Shown here piece after piece: positions 3,421 to 54,558 of a DNA stretch of 64,000 nucleotides (the first letter of the stretch is position 1; every line of letters begins with the position of its first letter). Made by a program: the position numbers and the translations under genes. Source of the stretch: an uncultured Thiotrichales bacterium (lineage in GTDB: Bacteria; Pseudomonadota; Gammaproteobacteria; UBA4575). The DNA lies in NCBI GenBank assembly GCA_964486815.1, contig CAZAOO010000004.1, forward strand, positions 75,371 to 139,370, written 5' to 3'. The notes below the pieces were generated by a model. It was not told the origin of the DNA. It did not search any database and was given only the letters and a program-made list of their open reading frames with translations.

Positions 3421-3428
3421 ATTTGTTT

Positions 3429-29420: not shown

Positions 29421-29492
29421 TATATGTATTGACCCAGTTGCCTATATATGATTCACTATATGCCATAAGTCTATATACTTATGACCGTGTCC
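29421..29492. promoter_or_regulatory. Conserved promoter/operator block upstream of urtA; TTGACC...ATATATGATTCACT...GCCATAAGT-N6-ACTTATGAC
   Basis: The sequence tattgacccagttgcctatatatgattcactatatgccataagtctatatacttatgacc is re-found with few changes upstream of dmfA1 (34865-34935). The palindromic core is shared with 50748-50782. Confidence 0.4.
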
Positions 29493-33974: not shown

Positions 33975-33975
33975 C

Positions 33976-34864: not shown

Positions 34865-34935
34865 TTCTATATTGACCTATAAGCCAATATATGATTCACT
34901 TATGGTCATTAGACAGTAGTCTTTTGGCTATAATT
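34865..34935. promoter_or_regulatory. Second copy of the conserved promoter/operator block, upstream of dmfA1
   Basis: The sequence ttctatattgacctataagccaatatatgattcacttatggtcattag aligns with 29421-29492. TTGACC, ATATATGATTCACT and the half-site ACTTATGG are shared. Confidence 0.4.
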
Positions 34936-35060
34936 GCGCATGCTTTTATATTGATTGCATATATAAAAATGGTCAACTCAAAACCTGAGGATCAAGCTTA
35001 TTAAATACAACATTTTTTAACTCATCACTACAACTCATGCAATTTGCGGAGGAAGAATAA

Positions 35061-35510: not shown

Positions 35511-35563
35511 ATAACGGATTAGACATAATAAATAAAGAATAATTTAGATCAGGAGAACATGAT

Positions 35564-37963
35564 ATGTGTGCAATGAGATTAACGGGTTACGCTGATAAGT
35601 TTGGCGTCCATCCCGGAGATACAATTAAATTCCATGTGAATTGTGACGGACCCAAAAAATATGATTGCCAAATCGTAAAAATGATTCATGGCGATACTAA
35701 TCCACGTGGCCCTGGGTTTATTGAAAAAAAAGTTTCTGCTAAATGTAACGGTGAATATAAAGGTAGACCACAAACTATCTATAGTGGTTCTTATGGTTAC
35801 ACAGATGACTTCAGCCACTTTCAAGTTGAATCCTTTACTATGCAGTGTTGGATTTGGCCAACAACACCAAAAACGCATCCAAAATATTGGCGTCATGGTG
35901 CGCAAGGTTTAATGACAAAATGGTGTAAGGGCAAAGGTTATGGATTATTTATTAACGAAGATGGTTGTTTGGAATTACGCATAAACAACAAGAAAATTAC
36001 CACAGGTGCCCCCATCCGTGATCATGCCTGGCATTTTGTTGCTGCAACGTTTGATGCTAAAACTGGCAAGGCAACTCTTTATCATGAGCCACAGATTCAG
36101 TATGCCTTGGACCCTGATATCCCACCTGTTACAGAGAAAATTAGCGGTAAAATCCAACACACTGATGGTGTTCCATTTGCAGTAGCAGCGTATGCGGATG
36201 GCGCAAGTTCAAATCCGCAGGCACAAGCTTCACGCCCTGCAGGCATGATCATGACAGGCCATTACAATGGCAAAATCGATAGCCCAAGACTGTGTAGACG
36301 CGCATTAAGTCGACAAGATATTGAAACCATGAAGCTTGGTGCACAGCCCGGCTTAACTGAACGCCGACATAGTGGTCCTACAGGCCCATTGTCTGAAGCT
36401 ATAGTGGGTGCATGGGATTTCTCAGATGGAATAAACACCATGGTAGGCATAGATCACGGTCCATACTTATATGACTTAGAAATTGTAAATTGTCCAACTC
36501 GAGCAATGACCGGATATAACTTCTCGGGTCACAACTTTGATTGGAAACACGCACCTGAAGAATACGGTGCAATTCATTTTCACGATGACGATGTCGATGA
36601 TGCACGCTGGGATGTTGATTTCGAATGGGATGTACCTAAAGGCACTGACAGTAAATTTTATGCTGCAAAACTAACCACAGATTCTGGTGACGAAGAATAC
36701 ATACCGTTTTGGGTGGTTCCACATGTTGGCGAAGAGACCGCTAAAATTGCTTACATGGTGCCAACGATTAGTTATATGGCTTATGCAAACGAACACCTTG
36801 CAAACAATGCAGGTGGTGCAGAATTGTTAGTCTATCGTGTACCGATCATGCAAGACCAAAACATGTTTTTAAGTGAACACCGTGAATATGGTGGTTCTAT
36901 TTATGACACCCATACAGATGGTAGTGGTCTATGTTTGTCATCGCGTTTACGACCAATCTTGAGTATTCGTCCGAAATACGATCACTTTTTAATGCAAGCT
37001 CCATGGCAATACCCTGCTGATCTACACATGATCTATTGGCTGGAAGAAATGGGCTACGAATATGATTGTATTACCGACGAAGATGTTACCTATGATGGTC
37101 TAGCACGACTTGAGAATTACAATGTCGTAATAACGGGTTCTCACCCAGAGCACAACAGTGGTCCACAACTAGATGCTTTACATAACTATACACAACAAGG
37201 TGGACGCTTGATGTATATGGGTGCTGATGCTTGGTATTGGATCCATTCGTATCATCCTGCATACGATAATTTAGGTCGAGGCATTGTTACCGAGATGCGT
37301 CGTTGCGAATCTGGTATTCGCACCTGGCGTGCAGATCCTGGTGAGTATTATCACCAAGGCACTGGTGAACTCGGTGGTATGTGGCGTTATCGCGGTCGCT
37401 ATCTGCACTCCGTTGCCGGTACTGGAATGTCTTCAGAAGGTTTCGATATTTCTTCCTACTACTCACGAACTTATGAAAGTAAAGATCCTCGTATATCTTG
37501 GGCATTTGACGGCATTGCTTATGATGAGAAGATTGGAAACTTTGGTTTAGTCGGTGGTGGTGCCGCAGGAACAGAGCTCGACATTGTCGATACTATGTTA
37601 GGTTCTCCTCCGCACACCTTAGTAGGTGCTACTTCTGCTGGGCGTCACACGGAAGCTTACCTTTTGGTAATGGAAGACTATGGCTTTAGCCAGCAAGGTA
37701 TTGATGGTACACAACATCCACGTGTTCGATCTGATATTGCATTTCATGAAACTCCGAATGGTGGTGGATGTTTTGCATTTAGCTCAATAGCTTTTTGTGG
37801 ATCACTTCCATGGAACAATGGTAAGAACAACATTTCTACATTAGTAGGAAATGTTTTAGATCGTTTCATGAAAGATGGACCATTACCTGCAGCACCTAAG
37901 AGCGCTTACATTCATCGTGGACGTGCAGATCACGATCCAGCAATGAACAAAAAAGCGAAGTAA
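35564..37963 (+). CDS. dmfA2: N,N-dimethylformamidase large (beta) subunit
   Basis: 799 aa. N-terminal strings MRLTGYADKFGVHPGDTIKFHVNCDG...HGDTNPRGPGFIEKKV plus the overall length and domain layout fit the DMFase beta subunit (~760-800 aa). It is a paralogue of the 773-aa ORF at 42395. Confidence 0.7.
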   Translation: MCAMRLTGYADKFGVHPGDTIKFHVNCDGPKKYDCQIVKMIHGDTNPRGPGFIEKKVSAKCNGEYKGRPQTIYSGSYGYTDDFSHFQVESFTMQCWIWPTTPKTHPKYWRHGAQGLMTKWCKGKGYGLFINEDGCLELRINNKKITTGAPIRDHAWHFVAATFDAKTGKATLYHEPQIQYALDPDIPPVTEKISGKIQHTDGVPFAVAAYADGASSNPQAQASRPAGMIMTGHYNGKIDSPRLCRRALSRQDIETMKLGAQPGLTERRHSGPTGPLSEAIVGAWDFSDGINTMVGIDHGPYLYDLEIVNCPTRAMTGYNFSGHNFDWKHAPEEYGAIHFHDDDVDDARWDVDFEWDVPKGTDSKFYAAKLTTDSGDEEYIPFWVVPHVGEETAKIAYMVPTISYMAYANEHLANNAGGAELLVYRVPIMQDQNMFLSEHREYGGSIYDTHTDGSGLCLSSRLRPILSIRPKYDHFLMQAPWQYPADLHMIYWLEEMGYEYDCITDEDVTYDGLARLENYNVVITGSHPEHNSGPQLDALHNYTQQGGRLMYMGADAWYWIHSYHPAYDNLGRGIVTEMRRCESGIRTWRADPGEYYHQGTGELGGMWRYRGRYLHSVAGTGMSSEGFDISSYYSRTYESKDPRISWAFDGIAYDEKIGNFGLVGGGAAGTELDIVDTMLGSPPHTLVGATSAGRHTEAYLLVMEDYGFSQQGIDGTQHPRVRSDIAFHETPNGGGCFAFSSIAFCGSLPWNNGKNNISTLVGNVLDRFMKDGPLPAAPKSAYIHRGRADHDPAMNKKAK

Positions 37964-40488: not shown

Positions 40489-41859
40489 ATGAGTGTTACG
40501 GTCAAAAGAGCTGTAACCATATTAGTAGCGGCGATGCTATTAATTCTTATAACAGTTCTAATTGTCATGACAATTAGACCAATTTCTCTGCCATTCCTAT
40601 CAAATTATATTGAAAATCAGTTAGAAACCCATCTCCACACATACTATATAGATTTTTATGATGCTCGAGCTCGTTGGCGACCTCTCAAAGGCACCTTAGA
40701 ATTTCATTTAAATTCAGCTCGTGCACTAGATCATGGTAAAAATGTACTTGTTTCAATCCCAAAAGTTTTAGCTGAAGTGAGAACAGAGTCTATCTTTAAT
40801 AAACATTTAATTCTTCAACACTTAGAATTTCAAGAACCTAGAATTAGTTTTACACGTACTACTGATGGTTCATTAAAATTTGACATTGGTAGTAGCGATG
40901 ACGGGTCCTCAGGAAAGATATTGGAAACCATTCTTATTAATATGGATACCACACCAACATTGCCTTCATCAACTAATGAATCGGTTACCGATCTTCGTAT
41001 TGTTAATTCCGACCTCACCATTAGCGATGAAATTACGGGTTCGTTATTACATGCGCCCAACGCAAATATTACCTTAATAGCTAAAAATGAAGGTATTGGA
41101 TGTGCATATGACTTTAATGTTTTTGCGCGAGGAGAATATTTACATTTATCTGGGGACTGTTTGTATAAAACTGCTACTGAAGAATTCGATCTATCAGTAA
41201 ATCTCGATGAAATTCGACCTGCTTTGCTTACTGAAATTTCACCACAATTCTTTTATCTTACTCCATTAGAAGTAAGACTATCTGGAGAAGTACGATTAGA
41301 GTTAGACAAGTTTCTTACAGTTAAAAAAGCAGAGTTCGACCTTACAAGTGGAAATGGTTCATTAGAAATTATTGACTATTTTGGCAAAAATCTAGATATA
41401 AATGCATTTCATATAGCTGGGAAAACATTAAATAATTTTTCGCATATTGAATTTGATAATGTAATGGTACAGTTGGATAAAGCAAAAGCTGAGGCAAGTG
41501 GTCTCTTCTTAATTGATAAAGAAAACTTGGATTTCAAATTAAATGCTTTTATTTCAGGCACACTAATAACAAACCTTCTTCCCCGTTGGTTTTCCTATTT
41601 AGAAACAGATAATTTGGACTGCATAAGCTCATTATCATCAAATAATCTTAAACGATCATCATTAACTATAGATGGTATATATAATCTTAAACAAAATCAG
41701 ATAAATGCCATTGGGAAAATATCTTGCTTAGATCAAAGATTAGCAGACGATGACATTAATCACTCAATAACCAAATATTTAGAAACTAAAATTAACAGCA
41801 CGCAAAAATTTAGTGTAGACGGAACTTTTGAATCGCCCAATTTGAAAACAATTCAATAA
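40489..41859 (+). CDS. AsmA-like/DUF3971-like membrane-anchored protein (possibly a truncated member of the YhdP/AsmA family)
   Basis: N-terminal signal-anchor (VTILVAAMLLILITVLIVMTI) followed by a long beta-rich, Ser/Thr/Asn/Asp-rich region typical of AsmA-like proteins. Confidence 0.35.
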   Translation: MSVTVKRAVTILVAAMLLILITVLIVMTIRPISLPFLSNYIENQLETHLHTYYIDFYDARARWRPLKGTLEFHLNSARALDHGKNVLVSIPKVLAEVRTESIFNKHLILQHLEFQEPRISFTRTTDGSLKFDIGSSDDGSSGKILETILINMDTTPTLPSSTNESVTDLRIVNSDLTISDEITGSLLHAPNANITLIAKNEGIGCAYDFNVFARGEYLHLSGDCLYKTATEEFDLSVNLDEIRPALLTEISPQFFYLTPLEVRLSGEVRLELDKFLTVKKAEFDLTSGNGSLEIIDYFGKNLDINAFHIAGKTLNNFSHIEFDNVMVQLDKAKAEASGLFLIDKENLDFKLNAFISGTLITNLLPRWFSYLETDNLDCISSLSSNNLKRSSLTIDGIYNLKQNQINAIGKISCLDQRLADDDINHSITKYLETKINSTQKFSVDGTFESPNLKTIQ

Positions 41860-42120
41860 AATATGTTTATAATTATATACCTTGCATAAATGATTAATGA
41901 GGTATTGAATGATTAAGCGCTGAGCACAGTAACGCTGTGTCACAGTAATGTTTATAAGTATTTAACTTACCATCTTTCGCTGTCCATAAATGAACCGTTT
42001 GCACTTCTAAATCCTGGCCAGATACTGTGGCTTTGGTTCGGTAAACCTTGCACAATTATATTTTCACCATCTACACTTCTGAAAGTTCCCCTCTACTGTT
42101 TACAAGCTTATAATAACGTT

Positions 42121-42368
42121 CTGCTTACTGTTTTATATTTTTACTCATGTATTTATATCCTCCCCATCAAAATACAGGTTTATTGATGTAACTCTAGGTG
42201 ATTTAACAAAACATATTTACGTCAAACACCATTAGTAGAATTAATAATTATGCATAGCCATAAGTATGTATAAAATATATTTATTCTTAATAGTTAATTG
42301 ATTAAGTAGTGCAATATTAAGGAAATAAACGAGTTATGACGTAAGAATATTCATTTAACTTGAATACC
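42121..42368. repeat. Direct repeat copy D (~250 bp), downstream flank of the ABC/DMFase-like operon; a degenerate copy of 50610-50956
   Basis: Aligns over its length with 50610-50956 in the same orientation (ctgcttactgttttatattttTACTCATGTaTTTATATCCtCCCC...CAGGTTTATTGATGT...gccataagtat...gacgtaagaatattcatttaact). Confidence 0.6.
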
Positions 42369-42394
42369 TTCTAAATACAAATCAATTACATTTA

Positions 42395-44716
42395 TTATCT
42401 CCACTGTTTTTCTTCAAGCGTCCAGCTTCCCCCTGGAAGTTCACCATCCTTAATAAAATTATCGACAACATTTTTAAGCAAGCTTGAAGCGCCATTTTTA
42501 TAATCATTTGCAGGCAAAGCTGATCCAAAAGCAATTGAGCCTGTGCTAAACACAGCACCATTATTGGGTGCTGTAAAATAAGTTATATCTGCGCGTACAC
42601 GATAATCTAAGCTACCAACTAAGCCTGCATAGGCATACAAAAGCTCTTCCGTTACTACCACATAGTTATCACTATGCCCTCCCGATGAGGCAATAATTTT
42701 AGTATGCGGCGGCGTACCTAATGAGAGATCGTAGCGATCTAGCTCAATTCCCGCAGCACCACCATAAGCTAAACCTTCATCACCAAAAACCTCATCCTCA
42801 ATTCCTTCTGTGAGCCAAGAAACGGTTCGATGATAGCTATCAGGCATTTTCCTAAAAGGTGCACTAGTTTCAAATCCTTCTGCAATAAAACCTACGCCGG
42901 TAAGTTTTTGCGGTGCACGCCCACGTGTTCTCCACAAACCACTCTTCTCACCTGTGGTTTGCAAATAGTGTTCACCAGCTTTTGCCGCCCAAGCACGCAT
43001 ACCTGAATCTAATTTTCTAACTTCCATACACCAAGGTTCATCCTCATTAAAACCGATACACCAGTAATAACCATTGCCACCCATATATATGAGTCGCCCA
43101 CCTTGAGCTACAAAGTCTTCTTGTGCATCTAACATCCGTTCCGAAACATATTCTGGATGTGTGCCAGTCATTACACAGTTATAAGGTTCTAATGCACTTA
43201 ATTCTTCCTGATGTAAATCTTCATCAGTAATAATGTCATAGTCATAACCACTCGCTTCAAGCCAAGCTATAATGGAAAGATCAGCAGGAAATTGCCACGG
43301 CACATTCATACTTGATATGCGATATTTCGGTCGCATATTTACGATGGGCCTCTTATAGGAACTGAATGACACACCCGCACCATCCTCATAACTGTCGTAC
43401 GTTGACAATCCAAATTCACCATTTTTATAAATTTCAATATCGACATCACTGATTACAGGTGGTTGCCCTGTCATAGGTTGTATTATTTGTGCATCAAAAC
43501 TTAATTTTTCATTTGCATAGGCAAGATAACTAGCAGTAGGAACCAAAAAACATAATTTAGATGTAGGTTTAGCTGGTCTTACAAAAAAGACTACATATTC
43601 TTCACCCAACCCATTACCACTACCTGCAGTTAAACGAAATGCATATACTCCACTTTTTAAATTTTCCGGGACCTGCATAGATTTAGTTACTTCCCAATTA
43701 CAATCTGTAACTGACTCAGGGTGGAACTCAATACCTCCATACTCATACGGTGCCAGCCTGAAACAATCATTTTTCCCTGACCAATTCCAACCTGTTAAAC
43801 CTCGTACAGGATGATTTACACCAACTGCATTAAGTTTATGGGGACCAATATCGACAACCGTGTTACCGATACCATTTTCCGTATAGCCTTCCGTTGTATC
43901 CCAGTACGCTAAGATAGAGTTTTTGGGTGGCAATTCGCCGGAACAAACTTTGTCTAATTCATCACGTGAAAGAGCTCGATTACAAATACCCGGGCGATCA
44001 ATTTTTCCGAAATACATGTCGTTAACAAAATTACCTCTTAATTCATGAAAATCTAATGCTCCTGCAATCATGAAAGGAACATCTTGTCTGTTTTTTTGTT
44101 TGAACCTAAGGGTAGTTTGCATGTGCGAGCTAAAATCATATGGCGTAACCTTTCCAATTAACGAGTTATAGCGATTCATAACTCCCTCTTGAAAAAGAGT
44201 TACTTTACCGCTACTAGGATCAAAACTTGCAGCTACGAAATACCAGACTTTATCTACTAGTGGTAATTCAGAAGCAATATAGTCAATCTCTGCGCCATCA
44301 CCCACCCAAAATTCGAGATGACCTTGCGGATTTATACCGATTCCATAACCCTCATTGGTGCGCGCATCTACTCGCCCTAATAGAGTTTGGCGTAAACCTT
44401 TTTTAGAGATGGTTGGCCAGATATAACAGAATATAGTGAAACTTCCTTCAACACATAGATGCTGATTTGGATCATCAACAACCAAATGCGAGCCTAACTG
44501 AGTGAACTGTTTTTTAACATCCCATTCCCCATTCACTGGACATTCAACTTCTTCTTCAACAAAACCTGGGCCGTCTACATGCTCGTCACCATGTATAAGG
44601 CGTACAAGTTGGGCATCTGCTGTTTTTGTTCCATCTGCATTTACATGAATATCAATATCCTCACCTTGTTTAACAGATATTTTATTCGTATATCCAAATA
44701 TTTTAATTTCAGCCAT
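42395..44716 (-). CDS. DMFase large-subunit paralogue (N,N-dimethylformamidase beta-subunit-like amidohydrolase), substrate unknown
   Basis: 773 aa. Clearly homologous to the ORF at 35564 along its whole length (MAEIKIFGYTNKISVKQGEDIDIHVNADG...LIHGDEHVDGPGFVEEEV vs MRLTGYADKFGVHPGDTIKFHVNCDG...MIHGDTNPRGPGFIEKKV). It is the last gene of an ABC-importer operon. Confidence 0.7.
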   Translation of the reverse strand: MAEIKIFGYTNKISVKQGEDIDIHVNADGTKTADAQLVRLIHGDEHVDGPGFVEEEVECPVNGEWDVKKQFTQLGSHLVVDDPNQHLCVEGSFTIFCYIWPTISKKGLRQTLLGRVDARTNEGYGIGINPQGHLEFWVGDGAEIDYIASELPLVDKVWYFVAASFDPSSGKVTLFQEGVMNRYNSLIGKVTPYDFSSHMQTTLRFKQKNRQDVPFMIAGALDFHELRGNFVNDMYFGKIDRPGICNRALSRDELDKVCSGELPPKNSILAYWDTTEGYTENGIGNTVVDIGPHKLNAVGVNHPVRGLTGWNWSGKNDCFRLAPYEYGGIEFHPESVTDCNWEVTKSMQVPENLKSGVYAFRLTAGSGNGLGEEYVVFFVRPAKPTSKLCFLVPTASYLAYANEKLSFDAQIIQPMTGQPPVISDVDIEIYKNGEFGLSTYDSYEDGAGVSFSSYKRPIVNMRPKYRISSMNVPWQFPADLSIIAWLEASGYDYDIITDEDLHQEELSALEPYNCVMTGTHPEYVSERMLDAQEDFVAQGGRLIYMGGNGYYWCIGFNEDEPWCMEVRKLDSGMRAWAAKAGEHYLQTTGEKSGLWRTRGRAPQKLTGVGFIAEGFETSAPFRKMPDSYHRTVSWLTEGIEDEVFGDEGLAYGGAAGIELDRYDLSLGTPPHTKIIASSGGHSDNYVVVTEELLYAYAGLVGSLDYRVRADITYFTAPNNGAVFSTGSIAFGSALPANDYKNGASSLLKNVVDNFIKDGELPGGSWTLEEKQWR

Positions 44717-44754
44717 TTTTTATTATTCCCAGATTAAATAGTTATCCATTAAAT

Positions 44755-45096
44755 TTAGGATTCCATTAGATCACTAATTCTTTTCAAAAATACCCCGTGG
44801 TAAGCATCTTCAATTGTTTTAAATTCCTTGCCTTCAACAATACGAGGAAGCTCACCTCTCACACCTGAAAGTGCAATGATTTTGAATGAACTAGTTTTAT
44901 TGTCGCGCTTAATCGCATATTTATTTTTTTGTGGTGCACTACAAAAATAATGCAACAATCTCGAAAGAGGTTCACTGTGCTGCCCATGAGAGTTGTTTTC
45001 ATGCTCTTGTATGACATCTTGGCAGACTAAAGTTTTTAGAAATTCGCTTTGTTTTTTATCGAAATATTCACGATAAAAAATATCTTTATCCTTCAC
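44755..45096 (-). CDS. DMFase small-subunit-like protein (free-standing)
   Basis: 113 aa with an apparent GTG start. ~60% identical to the C-terminal 115 aa of the permease encoded immediately upstream. Homologous to DmfA1 at 35061. Confidence 0.55.
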   Translation of the reverse strand: MKDKDIFYREYFDKKQSEFLKTLVCQDVIQEHENNSHGQHSEPLSRLLHYFCSAPQKNKYAIKRDNKTSSFKIIALSGVRGELPRIVEGKEFKTIEDAYHGVFLKRISDLMES

Positions 45097-45148
45097 TTCA
45101 ATTTCTTCTTCAATGGATATGGATTAATATTATTATTAATTATTCTTA

Positions 45149-46798
45149 CTATGATTCCAGCAAATCGTATACACGTCTTACAAAAACACCATGGTAAGCA
45201 TCTTCGATAGTTTTGTATTCTTTATCTTCGACTAATCGTGGAGACATTCCTCTTACCCCCGAGAACGCTACAATCTTAAATGTATTTGAAATTCCATCGC
45301 GTTTAATTGCATATTTATCATTTTGAGGAACACGACGAAAATAAAGTAATATTCTTTCTAGTGCTTCACTATGTTGTCCTAGAGGTTTACTTTTATGTTC
45401 ATTTATTACTTCATCACACACTAGATTTTTTAAATAATCTCTTTGCATCTTGTCGAAACGCCGATGGTATATATGATCTTTATCGCAGATCTCCGTCGCC
45501 TCTTCTGGTAAGACATCACCACCTTTTTCAGCGCGAGCCGACCGCCACTCCCCTTTCTTTTTATCACGCCAAGCACGAAATTGTTGTTTCATGCCAAATA
45601 GACCTTTGTTTAAAAATAACACAACGAACAGCATTAATAGTCCTATCATAACGTGTCTTACAGGCCCTAAAGTAATCAAAACTTTATCCAATATAACTAC
45701 AATCAGTGTGCCAATAATTGCACCTTCTGCTTTCCCGATACCACCAATGGTAAGCATAGCCAAGCCAAGCAAAAGAGTATCAAAACTAAATATTGAAAAA
45801 GCTACTCCTCTGTAATGTGCAGCATAAAAACCACCAATGAATCCAAGCGCTACTGAAGAAACAAGAAATACGGTTATTCTTGCCTGCTTATAATTCACAC
45901 CAGTAGCTTCAGCAAACGCTTCTCTTTTCTCGGGTGCCATTTTTAACAGTCGACCAAGACGTTTACCATCTACAAATCTAAACAAAAAAAGTGCAGCAAT
46001 TAATAATGCAAAAGCTCCATAGTATGAGACCAGTGATTGCATTAATGGTGGCCAATCAGAATTTATGTACGTTGAGGCACCATATAAACCTCCTGAAGCA
46101 GAACCAAATTCTTTTGAGGTAACCATATAAACTCTACAAAGCTCATTTAAACCTAAAGTCAACAATGCATAGTAAAATCCATCTAAACGCATTGCCGGTA
46201 ATGCAATGATCCCACCAAAAATAAATCCGATAGCCATTCCAATTAAGGGTAATGACCACCACGGATAGCCTAAATTTATCGATAACCAAGAAGTACAAAA
46301 TGCTGCCACACCAACTACTGCATAGGTGGCAAGTGAAAAAATACTCGCCGTACCAATCACTAATGTCCAACATACATTTATCGCAGCAAATATTCCAAAC
46401 ACCGCTCCTGCCGTAAGAAGTGTGTTCTGCATACTTTCAGGAAAGAAAAGAGGTGCTAAAGCTAATGCTGTTAAACCTATTACCCAATAAATAGGGCGTT
46501 TATCCACAATTAGTTTTTGAGCTTTAAGAGACTTTATATTGTAATAGCCTCGTACATGTAACAAGGTTCTTCTAGTTGGCCACCACCTCAATCTTTTCCA
46601 AAGACGTTCCCCATGATTTTTCCATTTATATATATATTTAAACCGACCTACTTTATAGAGAGGCACGTTATAAGTTTTATTTTTATCCCAAATTGATCCA
46701 GGATCCTCTACTTTTATTGAAGGAACTTCATAATTTCCACCTTTATCTCCCCAAACCGATAGTGGATTCTTCCAGGTATACTTTTTAGTATTGCTCAT
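45149..46798 (-). CDS. ABC permease (LivM/UrtC-type) fused to a C-terminal DMFase small-subunit-like domain
   Basis: 549 aa. Residues ~100-410 form a LivM-family polytopic permease. Residues ~430-549 (…HIYHRRFDKMQRDYLKNLVCDEVINEHKSKPLGQHSEALERILLYF…KIVAFSGVRGMSPRLVEDKEYKTIEDAYHGVFVRRVYDLLES) repeat the sequence of the next gene. The start overlaps the upstream permease stop (ATGA). Confidence 0.7.
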   Translation of the reverse strand: MSNTKKYTWKNPLSVWGDKGGNYEVPSIKVEDPGSIWDKNKTYNVPLYKVGRFKYIYKWKNHGERLWKRLRWWPTRRTLLHVRGYYNIKSLKAQKLIVDKRPIYWVIGLTALALAPLFFPESMQNTLLTAGAVFGIFAAINVCWTLVIGTASIFSLATYAVVGVAAFCTSWLSINLGYPWWSLPLIGMAIGFIFGGIIALPAMRLDGFYYALLTLGLNELCRVYMVTSKEFGSASGGLYGASTYINSDWPPLMQSLVSYYGAFALLIAALFLFRFVDGKRLGRLLKMAPEKREAFAEATGVNYKQARITVFLVSSVALGFIGGFYAAHYRGVAFSIFSFDTLLLGLAMLTIGGIGKAEGAIIGTLIVVILDKVLITLGPVRHVMIGLLMLFVVLFLNKGLFGMKQQFRAWRDKKKGEWRSARAEKGGDVLPEEATEICDKDHIYHRRFDKMQRDYLKNLVCDEVINEHKSKPLGQHSEALERILLYFRRVPQNDKYAIKRDGISNTFKIVAFSGVRGMSPRLVEDKEYKTIEDAYHGVFVRRVYDLLES

Positions 46799-47676
46799 TG
46801 CTCACGCGCCTTATCCAAAAGACCCGCAATACCTCTTGGTCTGATAATTAATATTGTAATAATCACAAGAAACTGTGTGATCAACACATATTGCCCACCT
46901 AATAACCTCGATGTAAGCGCTTCAGTCAGACCAAGAATGATGGCAGCAATTACAGCACCTTGAACACTTCCGAGACCACCGCATAACGCTATGCTCACAC
47001 CTTTGATTAATGGAGTTAAACCGCTAAAGGGTGATATATAATAAGTCTGAGACAGAAGCACAGCCGAAAGACCCGCCATACCTCCAGTAATTGCCATTAC
47101 ATAAAAGCCTGTTTTCCTTATCCCAATACCAACAATAGATGCGGCATGAGGGTTCATCATCATGGCTCGTATTTCTAAACCGCGTCTACTGGACTTCATC
47201 CATAGCACAACAAATATCAACATCAATATGGAACAGACTATTATTCCAATTTTATCAGAGGTTAAAACGGTGTTACCTATAGAGACTTTCCAATAACCAA
47301 ATACTTCAGGCAGTGCTTTATTTTTTGGACCAAAATACCAAAGCAAACCCTGTGAGCCAATTAAGCTAATCGCCAGTGTTCCAATCATGCCCCTAATGGT
47401 AAAATTTGGCTTGTCATGTAGCGGTATAAAAACCAACATACAAATGATAATCCCTCCAAGTGCTCCAATTAATATTCCAGCAGCAATCACTACGACTGGA
47501 TGATCAGAAATCATTCGCGCTGCTAAGTAAGCACCATATCCTGCAAATGAAAAAATAAATCCATAACTTAGATTCAGCAACCCCAAACTTGACCAAGTAA
47601 TAGAGACCGCTACGGCTATAAGGCCATAAATACAAGCTACTATAGTTGCATTAATTAATATGAAACTTATATCCAA
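46795..47676 (-). CDS. ABC permease (LivH/UrtB-type)
   Basis: 293 aa polytopic LivH-family permease. Confidence 0.85.
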   Translation of the reverse strand: MDISFILINATIVACIYGLIAVAVSITWSSLGLLNLSYGFIFSFAGYGAYLAARMISDHPVVVIAAGILIGALGGIIICMLVFIPLHDKPNFTIRGMIGTLAISLIGSQGLLWYFGPKNKALPEVFGYWKVSIGNTVLTSDKIGIIVCSILMLIFVVLWMKSSRRGLEIRAMMMNPHAASIVGIGIRKTGFYVMAITGGMAGLSAVLLSQTYYISPFSGLTPLIKGVSIALCGGLGSVQGAVIAAIILGLTEALTSRLLGGQYVLITQFLVIITILIIRPRGIAGLLDKAREQ

Positions 47677-47706
47677 ATCAAACCCACCTTAAATACTATT
47701 TACGGA

Positions 47707-48414
47707 CTACTTTAATTGCATTGACAAAGCAGAAGTTGCTTCACCTTTTAATTTTCCAGCATGCATTCCAATAACACGATCTACATTGCCTTCTAATAGA
47801 GCAACGTTTTGTTCAGCGATAATCATTGCTGAATTACTTAATTCTATTTTCAATAGCGCTTCCATTACACCCTTGCCAATTTTTGGTGCCAATCCCAACG
47901 ATGGTTCATCTGCAAGATAAAGTTTTGCATCCATCATCAACCCTCTTCCTATAGAAACCATTCTTCGTTCACCACCAGACAATCTTGCAACAGGTGTTTT
48001 TAATAATTTTTTTAATGGTTCAAACAAATCTAAAACTTGTTCTTTTCTTTGTTTTCGATTTTTCCAAGCTTGTTTTGTGAAAGCACCACTGTCTAGATGC
48101 TCTTCAACTGTTAGACCATGAAATATTTCATCTCCTTGGGGCATAATAGCGAGTCCTTGCCTAACAATATGATGCGTATAACGCCCCGGCCCTTGACTTC
48201 GCGTTCTACCAATTTGATTTCCATTAAATAAAATTGAGCCACGTTGCCAACCGGTTAGTCCCGCAATACCATAAAACAGTGTGGTTTTCCCATGGCCATT
48301 TAAACCCACCAATCCAACGCGTTCTCCAGAGCTAACTATTAAATCTAAGTCATGTATTACACGCAATGGGCCATAGCCTGTTGACAATCCCTGAACATTT
48401 AGTATTTCACTCAT
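47707..48414 (-). CDS. ABC transporter ATP-binding protein (LivF/UrtE-type)
   Basis: Walker A GLNGHGKTT, signature LSGGERRMVSIG, Walker B LYLADEPSLG. Confidence 0.85.
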   Translation of the reverse strand: MSEILNVQGLSTGYGPLRVIHDLDLIVSSGERVGLVGLNGHGKTTLFYGIAGLTGWQRGSILFNGNQIGRTRSQGPGRYTHHIVRQGLAIMPQGDEIFHGLTVEEHLDSGAFTKQAWKNRKQRKEQVLDLFEPLKKLLKTPVARLSGGERRMVSIGRGLMMDAKLYLADEPSLGLAPKIGKGVMEALLKIELSNSAMIIAEQNVALLEGNVDRVIGMHAGKLKGEATSALSMQLK

Positions 48415-49142
48415 TAGGCAGTCTCAAAATATGCAGCTTGTACTTTTGGACTGTTAATTATCTCTTTGAGCGAACCCTGTGCGATTACTTCGCCTGCATC
48501 CATGACAACTACTCTGTCAGCAATGGTTTCCAGGAGTTCAATTCTATGTTCTACAATTATTACTGCGATATTCATTTCTTTAGAAAGCATTCTTAGAATC
48601 TCGTCTATCTCATCTATTTCAGAATTGATTAATCCAGCAGCAGGTTCATCCATTAACAACAATTCTGGCTTATGCATGAGAAGATTAGCCAGCAATAGTT
48701 TGCGTCGGTTGAACGTTTTAAGTTGAGTATTAAACACATGTTCGTCCACAACAAAATCAACTAGATCCGCTGCGTATTCCGCATCGAAACGTGTGAGATA
48801 AGGCTTATAAGCTTGCCTTACCGCTTTGAATGTTTCGCCTACAGTAAGGTCTTCGGGAACCACTGGAGTTTGAAATGTTCGACCAATCCCAATTCGCGCA
48901 CGTTGATGAAAGTTCATGCCAGTAATGTTTTTTTGTTTATAAGAAACATTACCAGTTTTTGGCGTGTATCGACCTGAAAGAATTTCAAGCAAGCTAGTTT
49001 TACCTGCACCATTTGGACCAATGATGCCTAATACTTCTCCGGGTTTAATTTCTAAATTAATGTCTCGTAATATCTCTCTACCACCCAAATCGAGGGACAA
49101 GTTCTTGCACGAAAACAAAGGGGCAAAAGTTTGATCATCCAT
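48414..49142 (-). CDS. ABC transporter ATP-binding protein (LivG/UrtD-type)
   Basis: Walker A GPNGAGKTS, Walker B LLLMDEPAAGL. The stop overlaps the next gene's start. Confidence 0.85.
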   Translation of the reverse strand: MDDQTFAPLFSCKNLSLDLGGREILRDINLEIKPGEVLGIIGPNGAGKTSLLEILSGRYTPKTGNVSYKQKNITGMNFHQRARIGIGRTFQTPVVPEDLTVGETFKAVRQAYKPYLTRFDAEYAADLVDFVVDEHVFNTQLKTFNRRKLLLANLLMHKPELLLMDEPAAGLINSEIDEIDEILRMLSKEMNIAVIIVEHRIELLETIADRVVVMDAGEVIAQGSLKEIINSPKVQAAYFETA

Positions 49143-49168
49143 GAAATTCGCCCCACTATTCTTTTACG

Positions 49169-50515
49169 TTACCCCCACCAAGGAGCTGGCTGAAGTTTGG
49201 ATTCTGCTATTGCATTTGGCCAAACAATTTTGTGCTGCACGTCTTGTACTTGCACAAAAAGTTGACCCATACCAGTTTCATGCGAATCTGATTGATTTCC
49301 GAAACCATTGTCTGGATAGTGAAGAGCTTCTTGATATTCATTATCCATGTCCATCATTCCGCACACACCTCTATCTGGATTCGCTCTTACCCAAGCACAA
49401 TTCTTCTTGAAGTCTTCTGGTGTAGTATCCAATGCCTTAGTAGCATTCCACGCTTTCTCAAGATACTTAACGATGTCATAACCATTACCTGTATACACAA
49501 GACCCATGGTATTTCTTTCGTCATCACCAAACTCAGGAAAGCGTTTCAAATATTTTTTCCTAAAATCTTTTCCTTTTTTATCGCCATAAATCCCTAATAC
49601 GGTGCTCCAACAAAAACCTTCTGTTGCACGACCTCCAAGCTCTAAGAACTCAGGCTGTGACGGACCATACTGCAGATAAACGAGTGAATCTTTAACAGGA
49701 TCTGAACTAAATTGTTTACAAAATGCCGCATACTCAGAGGCTACCCAGTGATCAATCATAATTGCACCAGCATCCACTTCTTTAAGTCTTTGCATGACTG
49801 GCGACCAATCATTTACTGGGTATTGAATGTCTGTAACTTCTGCCAATTCAAAATCATATTTTGGAATGGCTTCTTTAGCGGCTTTAAGAATCGTTTGGCA
49901 ATAACCTACTTGTTCAGCAACAATGTGTATTTTTCTATTCTTAGGCTTCCATCCTTGCTCTTTTTCCATTTGTTGAAGCCAAAGCGGATAGGTCCAACCG
50001 TAATTCACTTCAGATGGGTCGGTTTGCAGCACATGGCTGTATTTTTCTGGCTCTGCTTTATATGCCTCAGTTGCATTTCGTTGTGTGTTGCCCTGTAAAT
50101 ATGGACATTTATATTTTGCAGATTCATCCATAGCAGGTATAGGCGCAAACAAAAATGAATTAGAGATCGCATGTACTTTTTTATCTATACATGCGGCAAT
50201 CGCTTGCCTACAACTTTCAGGATTAAGCTTGTCAACATCCGGAACAAATAACTCTAACTCTCTTCCTAATATTCCACCTGCTGCATTAATTTCTTCTTGA
50301 GCTAGAATGGAACCGTTAAGGTGATCTTGATCATCAGCAACACCATAGGGTGTTGACAAGGATGACGGGATACCTAATAAGATTTTATCTGATGCATCTA
50401 CTCGCCTCACCCATGGCGCAGGAAATGCAGAGACCACTGCACCTGCTGCAACTCCTTTTAATATTTTTCGTCTTGTTTGTTGACTTTTATTCAGCTTCTT
50501 CTCTTTTTTTCTCAT
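49169..50515 (-). CDS. Tat-exported periplasmic substrate-binding protein of the Liv/Urt/amide family (divergent from UrtA)
   Basis: 448 aa with twin-arginine motif TRRKILKGVAAGAVV and a type-I PBP fold. It is the first gene of the operon, with a GGAGG RBS. Confidence 0.8.
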   Translation of the reverse strand: MRKKEKKLNKSQQTRRKILKGVAAGAVVSAFPAPWVRRVDASDKILLGIPSSLSTPYGVADDQDHLNGSILAQEEINAAGGILGRELELFVPDVDKLNPESCRQAIAACIDKKVHAISNSFLFAPIPAMDESAKYKCPYLQGNTQRNATEAYKAEPEKYSHVLQTDPSEVNYGWTYPLWLQQMEKEQGWKPKNRKIHIVAEQVGYCQTILKAAKEAIPKYDFELAEVTDIQYPVNDWSPVMQRLKEVDAGAIMIDHWVASEYAAFCKQFSSDPVKDSLVYLQYGPSQPEFLELGGRATEGFCWSTVLGIYGDKKGKDFRKKYLKRFPEFGDDERNTMGLVYTGNGYDIVKYLEKAWNATKALDTTPEDFKKNCAWVRANPDRGVCGMMDMDNEYQEALHYPDNGFGNQSDSHETGMGQLFVQVQDVQHKIVWPNAIAESKLQPAPWWG

Positions 50516-50609
50516 AGTCTCGTCCTCCGAGTGAATATCAAAAATACCGGTTAGATATATTTCATTTTTAAGGATTCAAAAATAGATAGGCGATATTGCG
50601 ACAAGGAAT

Positions 50610-50956
50610 CTGCTAGTTCTTTTATATTTCTACTCATGTGTTTATATCCTTCCCCTTAGACACAGGTTTATTGATGTGACTGCTTCCCATTTAATAAAAT
50701 GTATTTACGTTAATTACCCTTACAAAAATTAACTAATTATTATGTATGGCCATAAGTATATATATAGTTATATACTTATGGCTAGTATAAAATATAGTAT
50801 ATATATATTTCTTATAATCAATATACGTATAACTAATTACAAAGCTATCCATATATTGTAGATTTTTTCGTATATATCAGAAAATTTATGCATCAAAAGT
50901 TACAAAGAAAAGCATATATGAGACATGACTTAAGAATATTCATCTAACTCAAATAT
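50610..50956. repeat. Direct repeat copy U (~350 bp), upstream flank/promoter region of the ABC/DMFase-like operon and of divergent ureE
   Basis: Aligns with 42121-42368. It contains an extra TA-rich insert and a complete 35-bp palindrome. Confidence 0.6.
50748..50782. promoter_or_regulatory. Perfect inverted repeat GGCCATAAGTATATA-N-TATATACTTATGGC; candidate operator in the divergent promoter region between the ABC/DMFase-like operon and ureE
   Basis: 14-bp arms that are exact reverse complements. The half-site GCCATAAGT recurs at 29462-29470 (with partner ACTTATGAC), 34887-34895 (ACTTATGGT) and 42256-42264. Confidence 0.45.
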
Positions 50957-50991
50957 GTACTGAATATCAATAAATTGTAAGAAATCTTCTG

Positions 50992-51441
50992 ATGATAGAA
51001 ATAAACCAAGTGCTTGGTCATTCACATGATTCGAATCTAGCGAATCAACTTCATGACTTATCACACCATAACAAAGTCGAATATATTGTTTTGGATCATG
51101 CAAATTTACAACGCCGTCGTTTTCGCACACAAACAGATCAAGGCACAGACTGCGCTGTGACAATAGCTCGTGATAATAAATTATCTAATGGTGCAGTTTT
51201 ATTATTAGAAAAAGATCGCGCCATTGTGGTGAAAATGGCTGAGGATCAGTGGCTTTCGCTCCACCCTAAAGATATTTCATGTGCGATTGAACTTGGCTAC
51301 TTTGCTGGCAATATGCATTGGCGAGTTAAGTTTGAGAATGAACGTCTTGATATTGCACTTGAAAGCCCTAAAGAAACTTATCTTGATCGATTACAGATAT
51401 TTTTTAACCAAAATAAAATAACTCTCGTTAAGCATGACTAA
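50992..51441 (+). CDS. ureE: Urease accessory protein UreE (no His-rich tail)
   Basis: 149 aa with the GNMHW motif (GNxH of the UreE metal-binding domain). Layout as in K. aerogenes UreE. Confidence 0.75.
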   Translation: MIEINQVLGHSHDSNLANQLHDLSHHNKVEYIVLDHANLQRRRFRTQTDQGTDCAVTIARDNKLSNGAVLLLEKDRAIVVKMAEDQWLSLHPKDISCAIELGYFAGNMHWRVKFENERLDIALESPKETYLDRLQIFFNQNKITLVKHD

Positions 51442-52145: not shown

Positions 52146-52841
52146 ATGCTACTAACACCCACTGAATATGAGCGTTTAACTATTTACACTGCGGCCGAAC
52201 TTGCAAGAAAAAGAAGAGAGAAAGGCTTGAAATTAAATCATCCAGAAGCAACAGCTATTATTGCTGACGAAATTTGTGAAGGAGCAAGAGAAGGTCGAAG
52301 TGTTGCAGAAATGATTAGCTTTGGTTCAACAATATTAAGCACCGACGATGTTATGCCTGGTGTTGGAGATATGATGCACATGCTTCAAGTTGAGGCTACC
52401 TTTCCTGATGGCACCAAATTAGTCACCGTACATGAACCGATACGATCAGGTAAAAAGAAAACTAAAGGAAATATCGTACCAGGGGAAATTATACCGGGTG
52501 ATGGTGATATCAAAATTAATGCAGGAAAACGCTCAAACAAACTAAAAGTACTTAATACAGGTGACCGCCCTGTACAAATTGGTAGCCATTTTCACTTTTT
52601 TGAAGTTAATCCAGGATTAGATTTTAAACGTAGTGACGCATTTGGAAAACACCTGGATATACCCGCCGGCACCGCAGTGCGTTTCGAGCCAGGTGAAAGC
52701 AAAGAAGTACAACTGGTTAATTTTGGTGGCGCTAGAGAAATACATGGCTTAAACAGTTTAACGAATGGTTCAACTACCAATGATGTTAAAAAACAAGAAG
52801 CCTTGCTCGAAGCTAAAAATCGTGGATTTAAGGGGGCATAA
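52146..52841 (+). CDS. ureAB: Urease gamma-beta fused subunit (Helicobacter-type UreA)
   Basis: Residues 1-100 are urease gamma ([11 protein letters not shown]...LKLNHPEA...[19 protein letters not shown]). Residues ~107-231 are urease beta ([17 protein letters not shown]...). Confidence 0.9.
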
Positions 52842-52845
52842 GAAA

Positions 52846-54558
52846 ATGATTAAAATTTCGAGAAAAGAATATGCAACTATGTATGGCCCTACCAAAGGAG
52901 ATGCAGTGCGTCTTGGAGACACCTCATTGTTGGCAGAAGTTGAACAAGACTGTGCCGTTCCGGGTGATGAATGTTTGCATGGTGGCGGTAAAACTTTACG
53001 CGATGGATTGGGACTAACTCCGGGCTATGACAGTGCAGCAGGTTCCTTAGACATGTTGGTTAGTAACGCACTGATAATTGATCCCGTATTAGGCATTGTC
53101 AAAGCCGATATAGGAATTAAAGAAGGTAATATAGCAGGCGTCGGCAAAGCTGGAAATCCTGCGACTATGGATAATGTAGACCCTGATCTTGTTTGCGGTG
53201 CTGCAACTACGGTACGAGATGCAGAGGGACTTATTGCAACACCAGGTGGAATAGACGTGCATGTGCATTTTGATAGTGCGCAGTTATGTGATCACGCAAT
53301 TGGTTCAGGCATTACCACCATGCTTGGTGGATCGTTGGGCCCAATCACCGTTGGCATAGACTGTGGCGGAGCATGGAATGTTGGCAAGATGTTACAAGCT
53401 TCTGAGCAATGGCCAATAAATTTTGGATTTTTAGGCCGTGGTAATTCTTCTAAACCTAGATCTCTGGTCGATCAACTTGCAGGTGGCTGTTTAGGATTAA
53501 AAATTCACGAAGATTGGGGTGCTATGCCAGCTGTAATTGACACCTGTCTTTCTGTTGCTGACGATTTAGATTTTCAAGTACAACTTCATACCGATACACT
53601 CAACGAAAGTGGCTTTGTTGAAAATACATTAGCTGCCATAAATGGCCGCACAATTCATATGTATCACACCGAAGGTGCAGGTGGAGGACACGCACCTGAC
53701 ATTATTCGAGTTGCGGGTGAATATAATTGCCTACCCTCTTCCACTAATCCAACCAATCCATACACAATCAATACATTTGATGAACACTTAGACATGACCA
53801 TGGTATGTCATCATTTGAATCCTGCTATCCCAGAAGATGTAGCCTTTGCAGAAAGTCGTATTCGTGCACAAACCATCGCAGCGGAAGATGTAATGCATGA
53901 TCTTGGTGCGATTTCTATGTTGGGCTCTGATAGTCAAGGAATGGGACGTATCAATGAAGTCATTTGCCGGACTTGGCAATTAGCAAGCAAGATGAAAGAT
54001 CAACGCGGTCGACTTGAAGAAGAACAAACGAAGCTTGGAGATAATGAAAGAATAAAACGTTATATAGCGAAATACACCATCAACGCCGCACGTACATTTG
54101 GTATTGATCAATATATAGGCTCATTAGAAAAAGGAAAAATGGCAGATATAGTGTTATGGAAACCCGCATTTTTTGGAATAAAACCAGAATTAATTATAAA
54201 AGGTGGTTTTATAGTTTGGTCCGCAATGGGTGACAGTGCTGCGTCACTCATGACTTGCGAACCCCTAGCGATGCGACCTCAGTGGGGAGCGTTCGGAAAT
54301 GCTAAACAACAGTTGAGTGCTAATTTTGTAAACCAGTCAGCAGTTGATGCCAATATTGGCGAAAAGTTACAACTACAAAAAACCTGCCTTGCTGCGCAAG
54401 GTACACGAAAACTTAATAAAGGCCATATGCTACACAACGATAATTGCCCAAAAGTGACGGTTAATCCTAATACATTCGATGTATTTGTCGACGGTGAACT
54501 GGCCACTTGTGAACCCGCTGAGACACTACCATTAACCCAACGATACATGCTTCGATGA
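52846..54558 (+). CDS. ureC: Urease alpha subunit
   Basis: Ni-site motifs [49 protein letters not shown]. The ATG at 52846 ([10 protein letters not shown]) is preferred over the longer overlapping ORF at 52765. Confidence 0.92.

Follow-up and report, generated by a model that had tools for sequence, protein, structure and literature searches.

The operon for an ABC transporter and DMFase-like proteins in this DNA is bracketed by long direct repeats, and the question that the locus raises is how such repeats came to stand there. All positions refer to the window, the whole 64-kb stretch that was analysed. The operon genes were assigned by our own Pfam search together with precomputed Pfam annotation of the identical contig, and lie between two conserved flanks:

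42395..50515, minus strand: ABC-transporter/DMFase-like operon, seven genes (ORFs, Pfam)
49169-50515, minus strand: periplasmic binding protein (SBP), first in transcription order (Pfam)
48414-49142, minus strand: ABC ATPase 1 (Pfam)
47707-48414, minus strand: ABC ATPase 2 (Pfam)
46795-47676, minus strand: permease 1 (Pfam)
45149-46798, minus strand: permease 2 (Pfam)
44755-45096, minus strand: DMFase alpha-like small protein (Pfam)
42395-44716, minus strand: DMFase beta-like protein, 773 aa, last in transcription order (Pfam)
50992..51441, plus strand: ureE, which opens the divergent urease cluster; left flank, conserved in all relatives (Pfam, synteny)
40489..41859, plus strand: YhdP/DUF748-like gene; conserved right flank (Pfam, synteny)

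The gene order of the operon is repeated in 30+ loci, and the 70-94% identity of its proteins across Alpha- and Gammaproteobacteria is suggestive of horizontal spread. Relatives have a 5.4-kb glutamate-synthase-like cluster that separates a snoaL gene from the YhdP-like gene. This cluster is deleted in the window, where the only match to it is a 33-39% paralogue at 15175-18125.

Comparison of the window with itself by blastn aligned the intergenic regions on either side of the operon, 42120-42387 and 50609-50976, colinearly and in the same orientation at approximately 75% identity. The match falls into two blocks, 42120-42284 with 50609-50779 (172 columns with 75% identity and 8 gaps; E 1e-26 in a search of the whole window) and 42325-42387 with 50914-50976 (76% over 63 columns, E 3e-7). 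The Smith-Waterman score of the pair was 93, against 23.4 +/- 2.9 in 200 dinucleotide shuffles (z=24). These statistics bear out the same-orientation repeats that had been proposed from the sequence alone, and the core strings quoted for them are present in the DNA. Over the intervals originally given, 42121-42368 and 50610-50956, MAFFT returned a mean column identity of 73%; that span stands, but the repeat reaches slightly further, on one side to 42387, leaving 8 nt to the stop codon that closes the operon, and on the other to 50976, 16 nt short of the ureE start codon. No third copy was found in the 64-kb window by blastn. The longest run identical between the two copies is the 16-nt block ACATCAATAAACCTGT, which lies at 50662-50677 on the minus strand in the 50.6-kb copy.

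The seven genes of the operon all lie on the minus strand, which places the 50.6-kb copy on its promoter side and the 42.1-kb copy behind it. The sequence-only reading had taken the 42-kb copy as the upstream promoter and the 50.6-kb copy as the degenerate duplicate, and so had the two roles reversed. We refer to the repeat as P, and to its copies and the elements associated with them as follows:

50609..50976, minus strand: P1, promoter-side copy, orthologous to 3428-3807 of the related locus L003 (72%) (blastn)
42120..42387, minus strand: P2, degenerate copy, ~100 nt shorter than P1 (blastn)
50551..50637, minus strand: stub ORF of 28 codons with RBS GGGGAAGGA at 50647-50655; remnant of snoaL copy 1
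41894..42148, minus strand: snoaL copy 2, a pseudogene with RBS GGGGAGGA and ATG at 42148 (tblastn, alignment)
50749..50782, no strand: perfect palindrome GCCATAAGTATATA-ACTATA-TATATACTTATGGC with 14-bp arms in P1, candidate operator
50702..50714, minus strand: conserved block ATTAACGTAAATA, kept in four of the five P copies

In minus-strand orientation, P consists of AT-rich non-coding DNA with conserved blocks, followed by GGAGG, an ATG and approximately 11 codons of a SnoaL/NTF2-like gene. In the alignment, homology spans the distal spacer, the RBS and snoaL codons 1-11 in both copies, and the minus-strand 3' end of each reads GGAGG-N8-ATGAGT(A/R)AAATATAAA. The earlier suggestion of a duplicated regulatory module is supported by this arrangement, in which promoter/operator DNA, RBS and the first SnoaL-like codons are present twice. 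On the P1 side, the stub ORF opens with ~11 codons (MSRNIKELAD...) from the 5' end of snoaL copy 1, the remainder of which is deleted, and 35 nt separate the end of the stub from the ATG of the SBP gene. On the P2 side, snoaL copy 2 is an 85-codon frame matching SnoaL_2 proteins with three in-frame stops; its lesions are a nonsense mutation at codon 8, an internal deletion of ~146 nt with a frameshift, and a further 2-nt deletion. A chance ORF is unlikely given a tblastn E value of 2e-33, and the 3' third of the pseudogene is 84-88% identical to intact orthologues. It is the sole snoaL homologue detected in the window by tblastn, and the snoaL copies form a star-like tree. P2 would be left without a gene to drive, and appears to be eroding.

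The spacer between the divergent ureE (start 50992) and the operon is almost wholly occupied by P1. We infer that P1 is the working promoter/operator of the operon in the window, in which case it would necessarily hold the divergent ure promoter too; sigma-70 consensus scans are uninformative in DNA this AT-rich. A five-way alignment of the P copies revealed conserved blocks. The P1 palindrome is predicted to form a DNA hairpin (z=-6.2), and its arms are identical at 14 of 14 positions between the window and L003, around a 6-nt centre that is wholly different. None of the three P2 copies in that alignment has intact arms, these being either degenerate or half-deleted; in the window P2, only the right arm is retained (42257-42270), and no hairpin is predicted (z=+0.4). 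The P1 of L003 has a further palindrome, ATTAACGTAAA-TACT-TTTACGTTAAT, with the block ATTAACGTAAATA as its left arm, and the version of this block in the window P2 reads TTTGACGTAAATA at 42214-42226. Searches against Rfam 15 gave no RNA family in 41.5-51.5 kb at E<=1, bar a chance CRISPR-DR match inside a gene, and none at gathering thresholds in the whole window.

The half-sites of the P1 palindrome, GCCATAAGT and ACTTATGGC, were found again upstream of a second, paralogous ABC/DMFase-like operon in the window, and the motif CATAAGT-N4-20-ACTTATG has two occurrences in the window where 0.02 would be expected. The related element is:

29462..29485, no strand: 24-bp palindrome GCCATAAGT-CTATAT-ACTTATGAC, related to the P1 palindrome

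This palindrome lies 150 nt upstream of the SBP gene of the second operon, and adjoins genes for a NarL/FixJ-type response regulator (28442-29140) and a hybrid histidine kinase (26286-28361). Its region is kept at 46 of 48 positions in one relative, against 57% identity for the rest of the upstream spacer. Half-sites common to the upstream regions of both operons suggest shared regulation, and the two palindromes would probably bind the same regulator. However, the half-sites are spaced 16 nt apart in P1 and 6 nt apart at the second operon, so the two need not be bound by one and the same protein. Operators of the LuxR/NarL/FixJ family (GerE HTH), such as the lux-box-like 20-bp inverted repeats, resemble the perfect inverted repeat of P1, and the likeness extends to the second site, where a related inverted repeat stands beside a regulator gene of this type and is strongly conserved in a relative; the 10-nt difference in half-site spacing between the two candidate sites departs from that pattern. 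The inverted repeat, the regulator gene adjoining one of the sites and the 46/48 footprint make only a circumstantial case that the palindromes may be NarL/FixJ-type operators. A LysR-type or other dimeric regulator would be equally possible as the binder, and we know of no named operator that the two palindromes match.

The states of the locus differ among relatives. In L003, whose beta protein is 93% identical to that of the window, ureE is followed by P1, an intact gene for a 133-aa SnoaL_2 protein, the SBP gene 26 nt further on, the remaining operon genes, P2 and a 3' remnant of snoaL; its P1 and P2 are 77% identical. Because both L003 copies have the long form, the shorter length of the 42-kb copy in the window reflects deletions of ~100 nt. 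L002 carries the downstream P copy, in the order beta, P2, 27-codon snoaL remnant and intact GATase/GXGXG-Glu_synthase cluster, on a contig that is cut upstream. The non-coding part of P is restricted to the window, L002 and L003, with two of the three contigs truncated. The operon is absent, with both flanks syntenic and a single snoaL, in L036, L041 and L073, and the ureE-snoaL spacer of these three is unrelated to P. L006, L072, L074/75, L045 and L043 have the operon at this site, oriented as in the window, and no P repeat was found in L006, L072, L074, L045 and L043. Neither the spacers of all these relatives, empty or filled, nor that of the second operon showed significant similarity to P. 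A single snoaL is also found in L045, L043, L006 and L072, and snoaL is natively the first gene of the glutamate-synthase-like cluster in L036, L041, L073, L043, L045 and L006. Filled and empty operon alleles are interleaved among relatives ranked by flank identity.

These comparisons make it likely that the repeats are two diverged copies of a P-snoaL module, which arose by a clade-specific segmental duplication and have since decayed in part. The homology is colinear across non-coding and coding DNA, both copies are found in L003 and the downstream one in L002, and outgroups have a single snoaL. The module would have measured ~0.75 kb, comprising ~350 nt of promoter/operator DNA, the RBS and the SnoaL/NTF2-like coding sequence. 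Before the duplication, the operon (8.1 kb) would already have stood between ureE and the snoaL-led glutamate-synthase-like cluster, and the common ancestor of the window, L002 and L003 would have carried the module on both sides of it. We infer that the likeliest route was tandem duplication of a ~9-kb unit followed by loss of one operon copy; Campbell-type re-insertion of an excised circle is an alternative route that would give the same product. By either route P would have replaced the earlier promoter region of the operon, giving the order ureE / P1-snoaL1-operon-P2-snoaL2-glutamate-synthase-like cluster. Redundant parts would then have decayed lineage by lineage: snoaL1 stayed intact in L003, L002 and L003 have in common a single deletion by which P2 runs into the final 27 codons of snoaL2, and in the window snoaL1 was cut to an 11-codon stub, snoaL2 disabled and the glutamate-synthase-like cluster wholly deleted. 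As in known segmental (tandem) duplications with partial deletion, the copies are direct, the unit is a promoter with a gene start, and the redundant gene copies decay independently, as stub, pseudogene and deletion fusions. The locus differs in that the pair is non-tandem, 8.5 kb apart, rather than a simple tandem array, and a two-operon intermediate was not observed. The exchange of the operon's native upstream region for a neighbour's regulatory module also resembles promoter capture or replacement.

The paralogous P copies are 70-77% identical and the orthologous ones 72-77%, which requires either duplication near speciation or some gene conversion. In a four-way alignment, nine sites group the copies by genome and eight by position, with the two kinds of site set apart along the sequence (Mann-Whitney p=0.011), a hint, from only 18 informative sites, that gene conversion may have occurred between the copies in the past.

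The repeats could instead be the footprint of an insertion, with the operon arriving as a cassette and the repeats representing duplicated target or att-like sites left by transposition, site-specific integration or single-crossover entry of a circle carrying P-snoaL. The repeats do bracket the operon exactly, from 8 nt past its last stop codon, as a Campbell-type event would predict. Operon presence varies at this site among close relatives, as it does for attL/attR islands and Campbell integrations, and the wide protein identity noted above suggests horizontal spread. We nevertheless consider an insertion footprint unlikely. The cassette acquisition suggested among others by the sequence-only reading found no support in the empty-site comparison which that reading had called for, and in which the spacer was unrelated to P in three of three relatives, and five relatives carry the operon without the repeat, contrary to the pattern of an att-bounded island. 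Moreover, att repeats are short and exact or nearly so, and usually derive from the 3' end of a tRNA or tmRNA, whereas those described here are 270-370 nt long, 75% identical and include a gene start, far above the length of a target-site duplication. The genes of 38-57 kb are those of an ABC transporter, DMFase-like, urease, YhdP-like and Sel1 proteins; no tyrosine or serine recombinase gene was found among them by Pfam and synteny, the earlier statement that transposase and integrase are lacking is correct for this interval, and the window contains no tRNA or tmRNA. An IS or composite transposon, which would be marked by a transposase gene, terminal inverted repeats and a target-site duplication of 2-14 bp, was also rejected, with no transposase in 38-57 kb and flanks that are long direct rather than inverted repeats. 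The flexible genomic islands of marine bacterioplankton, which undergo homologous exchange in their conserved flanks, are a parallel for an operon present or absent at a fixed locus (here between ureE and snoaL-glutamate-synthase-like cluster/yhdP), and account for the operon polymorphism but not for the clade-specific P-snoaL duplication.

Direct orientation, variable operon presence and the hint of gene conversion would also be expected if the repeats were now driving RecA-dependent excision or tandem amplification, with copy number or presence varying in the population. Efficient RecA recombination in E. coli usually needs ~25-30 nt of perfect identity. At 75% identity and with a longest identical run of 16 nt, the P copies are poor substrates for recombination now, be it excision or amplification; the empty-site relatives hold no P copy, hybrid included, and the conversion signal comes from few sites. 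An active role today, as had been suggested, is thus very unlikely. That a small mobile or repetitive intergenic element of the MITE or REP type settled at both ends of the operon by chance is more improbable still: P is AT-rich, non-coding, palindrome-bearing and confined to one clade, but it lacks terminal inverted repeats, its similarity continues into the snoaL RBS and coding sequence, and beyond the two copies in 64 kb none occurs elsewhere in ~0.9 Mb of related loci, nor did a metagenome scan return anything other than chance matches. A convergent origin, in which two unrelated promoters came to share regulator-binding motifs and nothing was duplicated, might explain blocky conservation and the recurrence of palindrome half-sites at a third, non-homologous promoter. 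It is effectively refuted by the alignment statistics: the match is colinear over ~270 nt with its blocks in the same order, takes in non-motif AT-rich spacer, RBS and 11 codons, and recurs as the same pair in L003.

If the P-snoaL module was duplicated as proposed, the event may also have rewired regulation. We tentatively raise the possibility, which we regard as rather doubtful, that GCCATAAGT-N6/16-ACTTATGGC is the operator of an undescribed amide/urea-responsive signalling system, for which the sensor binding protein, hybrid kinase and NarL-type regulator at 24.9-29.1 kb are the candidates. Copying of P to either side of the operon would then have put a second DMFase-like uptake and hydrolysis operon, and initially the glutamate-synthase-like cluster, into one regulon, and gene conversion would have kept the copies alike for some while.

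Long direct repeats around an accessory operon resemble the scar of a mobile element, yet comparison with relatives points to a promoter and gene start that were duplicated locally, with the redundant parts now in decay; the repeats are most likely an ordinary segmental duplication. A candidate operator is common to the two paralogous DMFase-like operons. The relatives provide a natural series at one locus, from empty to filled, to filled with a duplicated promoter, and on to a later stage in which snoaL decays and the glutamate-synthase-like cluster is lost. Such a series lends itself to studies of how a nitrogen-scavenging operon that spreads horizontally becomes part of the regulation of its host.

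The two intergenic regions bordering the seven-gene ABC transporter/DMFase-like operon (42395-50515) share a similarity that is real and far above chance. The sequence-only reading had placed direct repeats at 42121-42368 and 50610-50956, and both intervals align colinearly in the same orientation, with 73% mean column identity (MAFFT). A repeat search of the window returned five in-register repeat families at a constant offset of ~8,490 nt. By blastn, the regions share one block at 42120-42284 and 50609-50779 (75% in 172 aligned columns; E 1e-26 when searched against the full window) and another at 42325-42387 and 50914-50976 (76% in 63 columns; E 3e-7). The 64-kb window has no further copy. 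We term the 50.6-kb copy (50609-50976) P1, the 42.1-kb copy (42120-42387) P2, and the non-coding part of the module P. The Smith-Waterman score of P1 against P2 was 93, compared with 23.4 +/- 2.9 for dinucleotide shuffles. A metagenome-wide scan with the P motif GTRATTAACGTAAATAYNTTT returned 26 loci, all of them chance matches without flanking similarity or related genes.

The orientation of the operon determines which copy lies in front of it:

50515..49169, minus: binding protein (SBP) gene, first in the operon
minus: two ABC ATPases, then two branched-chain-type permeases
minus: DMFase alpha-like protein, 113 aa
44716..42395, minus: DMFA2_C (beta-like) protein, 773 aa, last operon gene
50992 (start), plus: ureE, divergent from the operon

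As 7/7 operon genes are carried on the minus strand, P1 sits between the operon and the divergent ureE, and P2 starts 8 nt past the stop codon of the last operon gene. The 42.1-kb copy had been labelled upstream and the 50.6-kb copy downstream; on a minus-strand operon these labels are reversed. The adjoining urease cluster has the unusual order ureE-ureF-ureAB-ureC-ureG-ureD, with the accessory genes ureE and ureF first, and its gamma and beta subunits are fused in a single 231-aa protein (52146-52841). The longest alpha-subunit ORF (52765-54558) has a 77-nt overlap with the fusion gene; since the product called in relatives is 570 aa long, translation probably begins further downstream.

On the minus strand, P1 and P2 end in a strong RBS and the same gene start (GGGGAAGGATATAAACACATGAGTAGAAATATAAAA in P1, GGGGAGGATATAAATACATGAGTAAAAATATAAAA in P2). 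The 85-codon frame that follows P2 (42148..41894) aligns with a SnoaL/NTF2-like protein in tblastn (E 2e-33), and its intact orthologue has a SnoaL_2 Pfam match. This gene, snoaL2, carries a nonsense codon at position 8, an internal deletion of ~146 nt with frameshift, and a 2-nt deletion. Of snoaL1, the copy behind P1, ~11 codons are left within a 28-codon stub ORF ending 35 nt before the SBP start. The shared RBS and snoaL start identify the repeat as two copies of a module in which a non-coding leader/promoter region is joined to the first part of a small gene.

We compared 34 loci encoding relatives of the 773-aa protein, and further loci found via snoaL, ureE and regulator homologues. The host lineage is uncultured, marine and gammaproteobacterial (~38% GC), and related MAGs are labelled Thiotrichales or Gammaproteobacteria. 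Among relatives and the window, one locus was observed in four states: empty, filled without repeats, filled with P on both sides, and the decayed form of the window. In the empty state (loci L036, L041 and L073), both window flanks are syntenic and the operon is absent; a spacer of ~320 nt separates ureE from an intact 133-aa snoaL, behind which lie GATase (302 aa), GXGXG+Glu_synthase (653 aa) and a GltD-like protein of 842 aa (Fer4_20/Pyr_redox), then a convergent YhdP-like gene and the second DMFase-like operon. In relatives, the glutamate-synthase-like (glt-like) cluster between snoaL and the YhdP-like gene is split. In the filled state without repeats (L006, L072, L074/75, L045 and L043), ureE and snoaL flank an operon oriented as in the window, and the spacers on either side of it are unrelated to P; the beta protein of L045 is the nearest to that of the window (95%). 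The operon has P on both sides in L003 and the window. In L003, P1 next to ureE leads into a complete snoaL, the SBP gene begins 26 nt after it, and beyond the remaining operon genes P2 is joined to what is left of a second snoaL, its 3' end. In L002, beta is followed by P2, a snoaL remnant of 27 codons and a glt-like cluster that is intact, and the P2-snoaL deletion junction is identical in L002 and L003. The window has reduced snoaL1 to a stub and snoaL2 to a pseudogene (84% identical to L003 snoaL1, 83% to L036, 82% to L045), and has lost the orthologous glt-like cluster, located as follows:

L036, 10426-15802: glt-like cluster
L002, 7684-10535: glt-like cluster
window, 41860-41894: equivalent junction, cluster lost

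A glt paralogue (33-39% identity) at 15175-18125 is the sole glt-like cluster kept in the window. The L002 contig (CAXMUG010000037.1), deposited under the MAG label 'uncultured Mycobacterium sp.', has 85-89% nucleotide identity to the window and also carries the P2 module; it is almost certainly a mis-binned gammaproteobacterial contig.

The repeats had been proposed as a footprint of cassette acquisition, a duplicated regulatory module, or a substrate for excision or amplification. If they had accompanied the operon's arrival, sites without the operon should retain one repeat copy. The sites of L036, L041 and L073 each carry a single snoaL behind a spacer other than P, and several relatives hold the operon in place without repeats; the repeats are thus not the footprint of its arrival. 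The non-coding part of P was restricted to the window, L002 and L003 among the loci compared, and the promoter region is doubled together with the snoaL 5' end. The repeats arose later, through a clade-specific doubling of the P-snoaL module, in agreement with the second proposal. The native place of snoaL is as first gene of the glt-like cluster, and its position upstream of the operon is therefore the derived state. The simplest route would be tandem duplication of a ~9-kb unit and subsequent loss of one of the two operons, giving ureE and then P-snoaL-operon-P-snoaL-glt; re-integration of an excised circle would be a formally equivalent route to the same arrangement. By eye, the ureE-proximal ~70 nt of P1 resemble L072 and L074, and a 'TATACTA' block aligns, but Smith-Waterman scores against the upstream spacers of these two loci were within shuffle range, as were those of P against the upstream spacer of L006, the downstream spacer of L072, the L036/L073 spacers and the second-operon spacer. 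The snoaL tree did not point to a parental copy: it is star-like, and the remnants are too short to use.

Present-day excision or amplification between the copies is unlikely, as identity between P1 and P2 is 70-79% depending on segment and the longest stretch without a mismatch spans 16 nt. In E. coli, efficient RecA-dependent exchange generally needs a longer perfect run. No transposase or integrase was found around the operon, as had been stated, and no tRNA gene was found. In a four-way alignment of P1 and P2 from the window and L003, the informative sites comprise 9 that unite the copies of one genome, 8 that unite copies in equivalent positions and 1 of crosswise type. The position-type class is distal and the genome-type class proximal (Mann-Whitney p=0.011; small sample, AT-rich alignment), which suggests, within the limits of such a sample and alignment, partial gene conversion between the copies after the lineages split. 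Three-way site counts in the RBS-proximal segment reflected branch lengths only (unique changes: window P2 13, L003 P1 16, window P1 2).

Phylogenetic footprinting of five aligned P copies revealed a conserved block on the ureE side (AATATTCTTAAGTCATG-CTCGTTTAT), a palindrome, GT(A/G)ATTAACGTAAATA, ACATCAATAAACCTGT and the RBS. In L003 P1, the GT(A/G)ATTAACGTAAATA block is part of another perfect palindrome, ATTAACGTAAA-TACT-TTTACGTTAAT. Both P1 copies (window and L003) have the main palindrome in perfect form, with identical 14-bp arms around a wholly different 6-nt centre, whereas in the P2 copies it is degenerate (L003, L002) or half-deleted (window). This pattern argues for selection on the palindrome in front of the operon and none behind it. 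The half-sites GCCATAAGT/ACTTATGGC have one further occurrence in the window, at 29462-29485 (2 occurrences of the pattern against 0.02 expected). The binding-protein gene of another, paralogous uptake/hydrolysis operon (24936-37963 with its preceding genes) starts 150 nt downstream of this site:

24936-26231: sensor-type binding protein
26286-28361: hybrid histidine kinase
28442-29140, divergent: NarL/FixJ-type response regulator, 232 aa
29637, plus: UrtA-like Peripla_BP_5 binding protein
plus: permeases, ATPases, 149-aa alpha-like protein, 799-aa DMFA2_C protein

The site adjoins the response regulator and histidine kinase genes, and lies within a 48-nt island of which 46/48 positions are conserved in a relative (regulator 86% identical), against 57% identity in the spacer on the island's upstream side. 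Half-site spacing in the two palindromes is 6 versus 16 nt. These comparisons point to P1 as the operon's working promoter/operator, with a putative regulator in common with the paralogous operon. The divergent ure promoter must also lie inside P1, because nothing else is upstream of ureE. Rfam searches of the locus at a permissive threshold, and of the whole window at gathering thresholds, gave nothing relevant, and neither copy matches a family. Sigma-70 consensus counts in P1 and P2 equalled shuffle expectation and were uninformative, and no terminator was found in either.

The ~150 nt from the second-operon palindrome to the start codon (window 29500-29636, compared with L076 2482-3000) are unusually well conserved, at 79% versus 57% for the spacer beyond the island, and may represent additional operator sites or a structured 5' leader; this stretch has no Rfam match. 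Operon-bearing relatives without P share another upstream motif, TATATACTAYCAGTTAACTAACT-NN-CAGTTAA, with two CAGTTAA repeats (L072 8451-8942; L074 7388-7817; L006 3665-4207), so that their native promoter may answer to a different regulator. A palindrome match in the operon-bearing L007 (15095-15112) is unrelated to the locus: it is a LysR-type box (CATAAGT-N4-ACTTATG) at the cbbR start. The divergent cbbR-cbbL pair (14198-16874; LysR regulator, form I RuBisCO) indicates autotrophic potential in at least L007.

The seven-gene order is kept, with proteins 66-94% identical, across Gammaproteobacteria, Rhodospirillales, Hyphomicrobiales and SAR11 (L004-L035) in varying contexts, consistent with horizontal spread of a nitrogen-scavenging cassette. 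In the window, a conserved four-gene block is the meeting point of the two DMFase-like operons, which are convergent. The 549-aa permease (45149-46798) has a C-terminal DMF_alpha-like domain (residues ~428-549) homologous to the adjacent small alpha gene (44755-45096), and the SAR11 (Pelagibacterales) loci L018, L020, L023, L024 and L026 have no separate alpha gene, beta directly following the permease. This arrangement suggests that the hydrolase may dock on the transporter via the permease-fused alpha domain. We found no literature directly relevant to the operon's function.

The event itself is of a known kind, a segmental duplication with replacement of a promoter, after which the redundant parts decay. 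More interesting are its by-products, a candidate shared operator and a natural allelic series at this locus.
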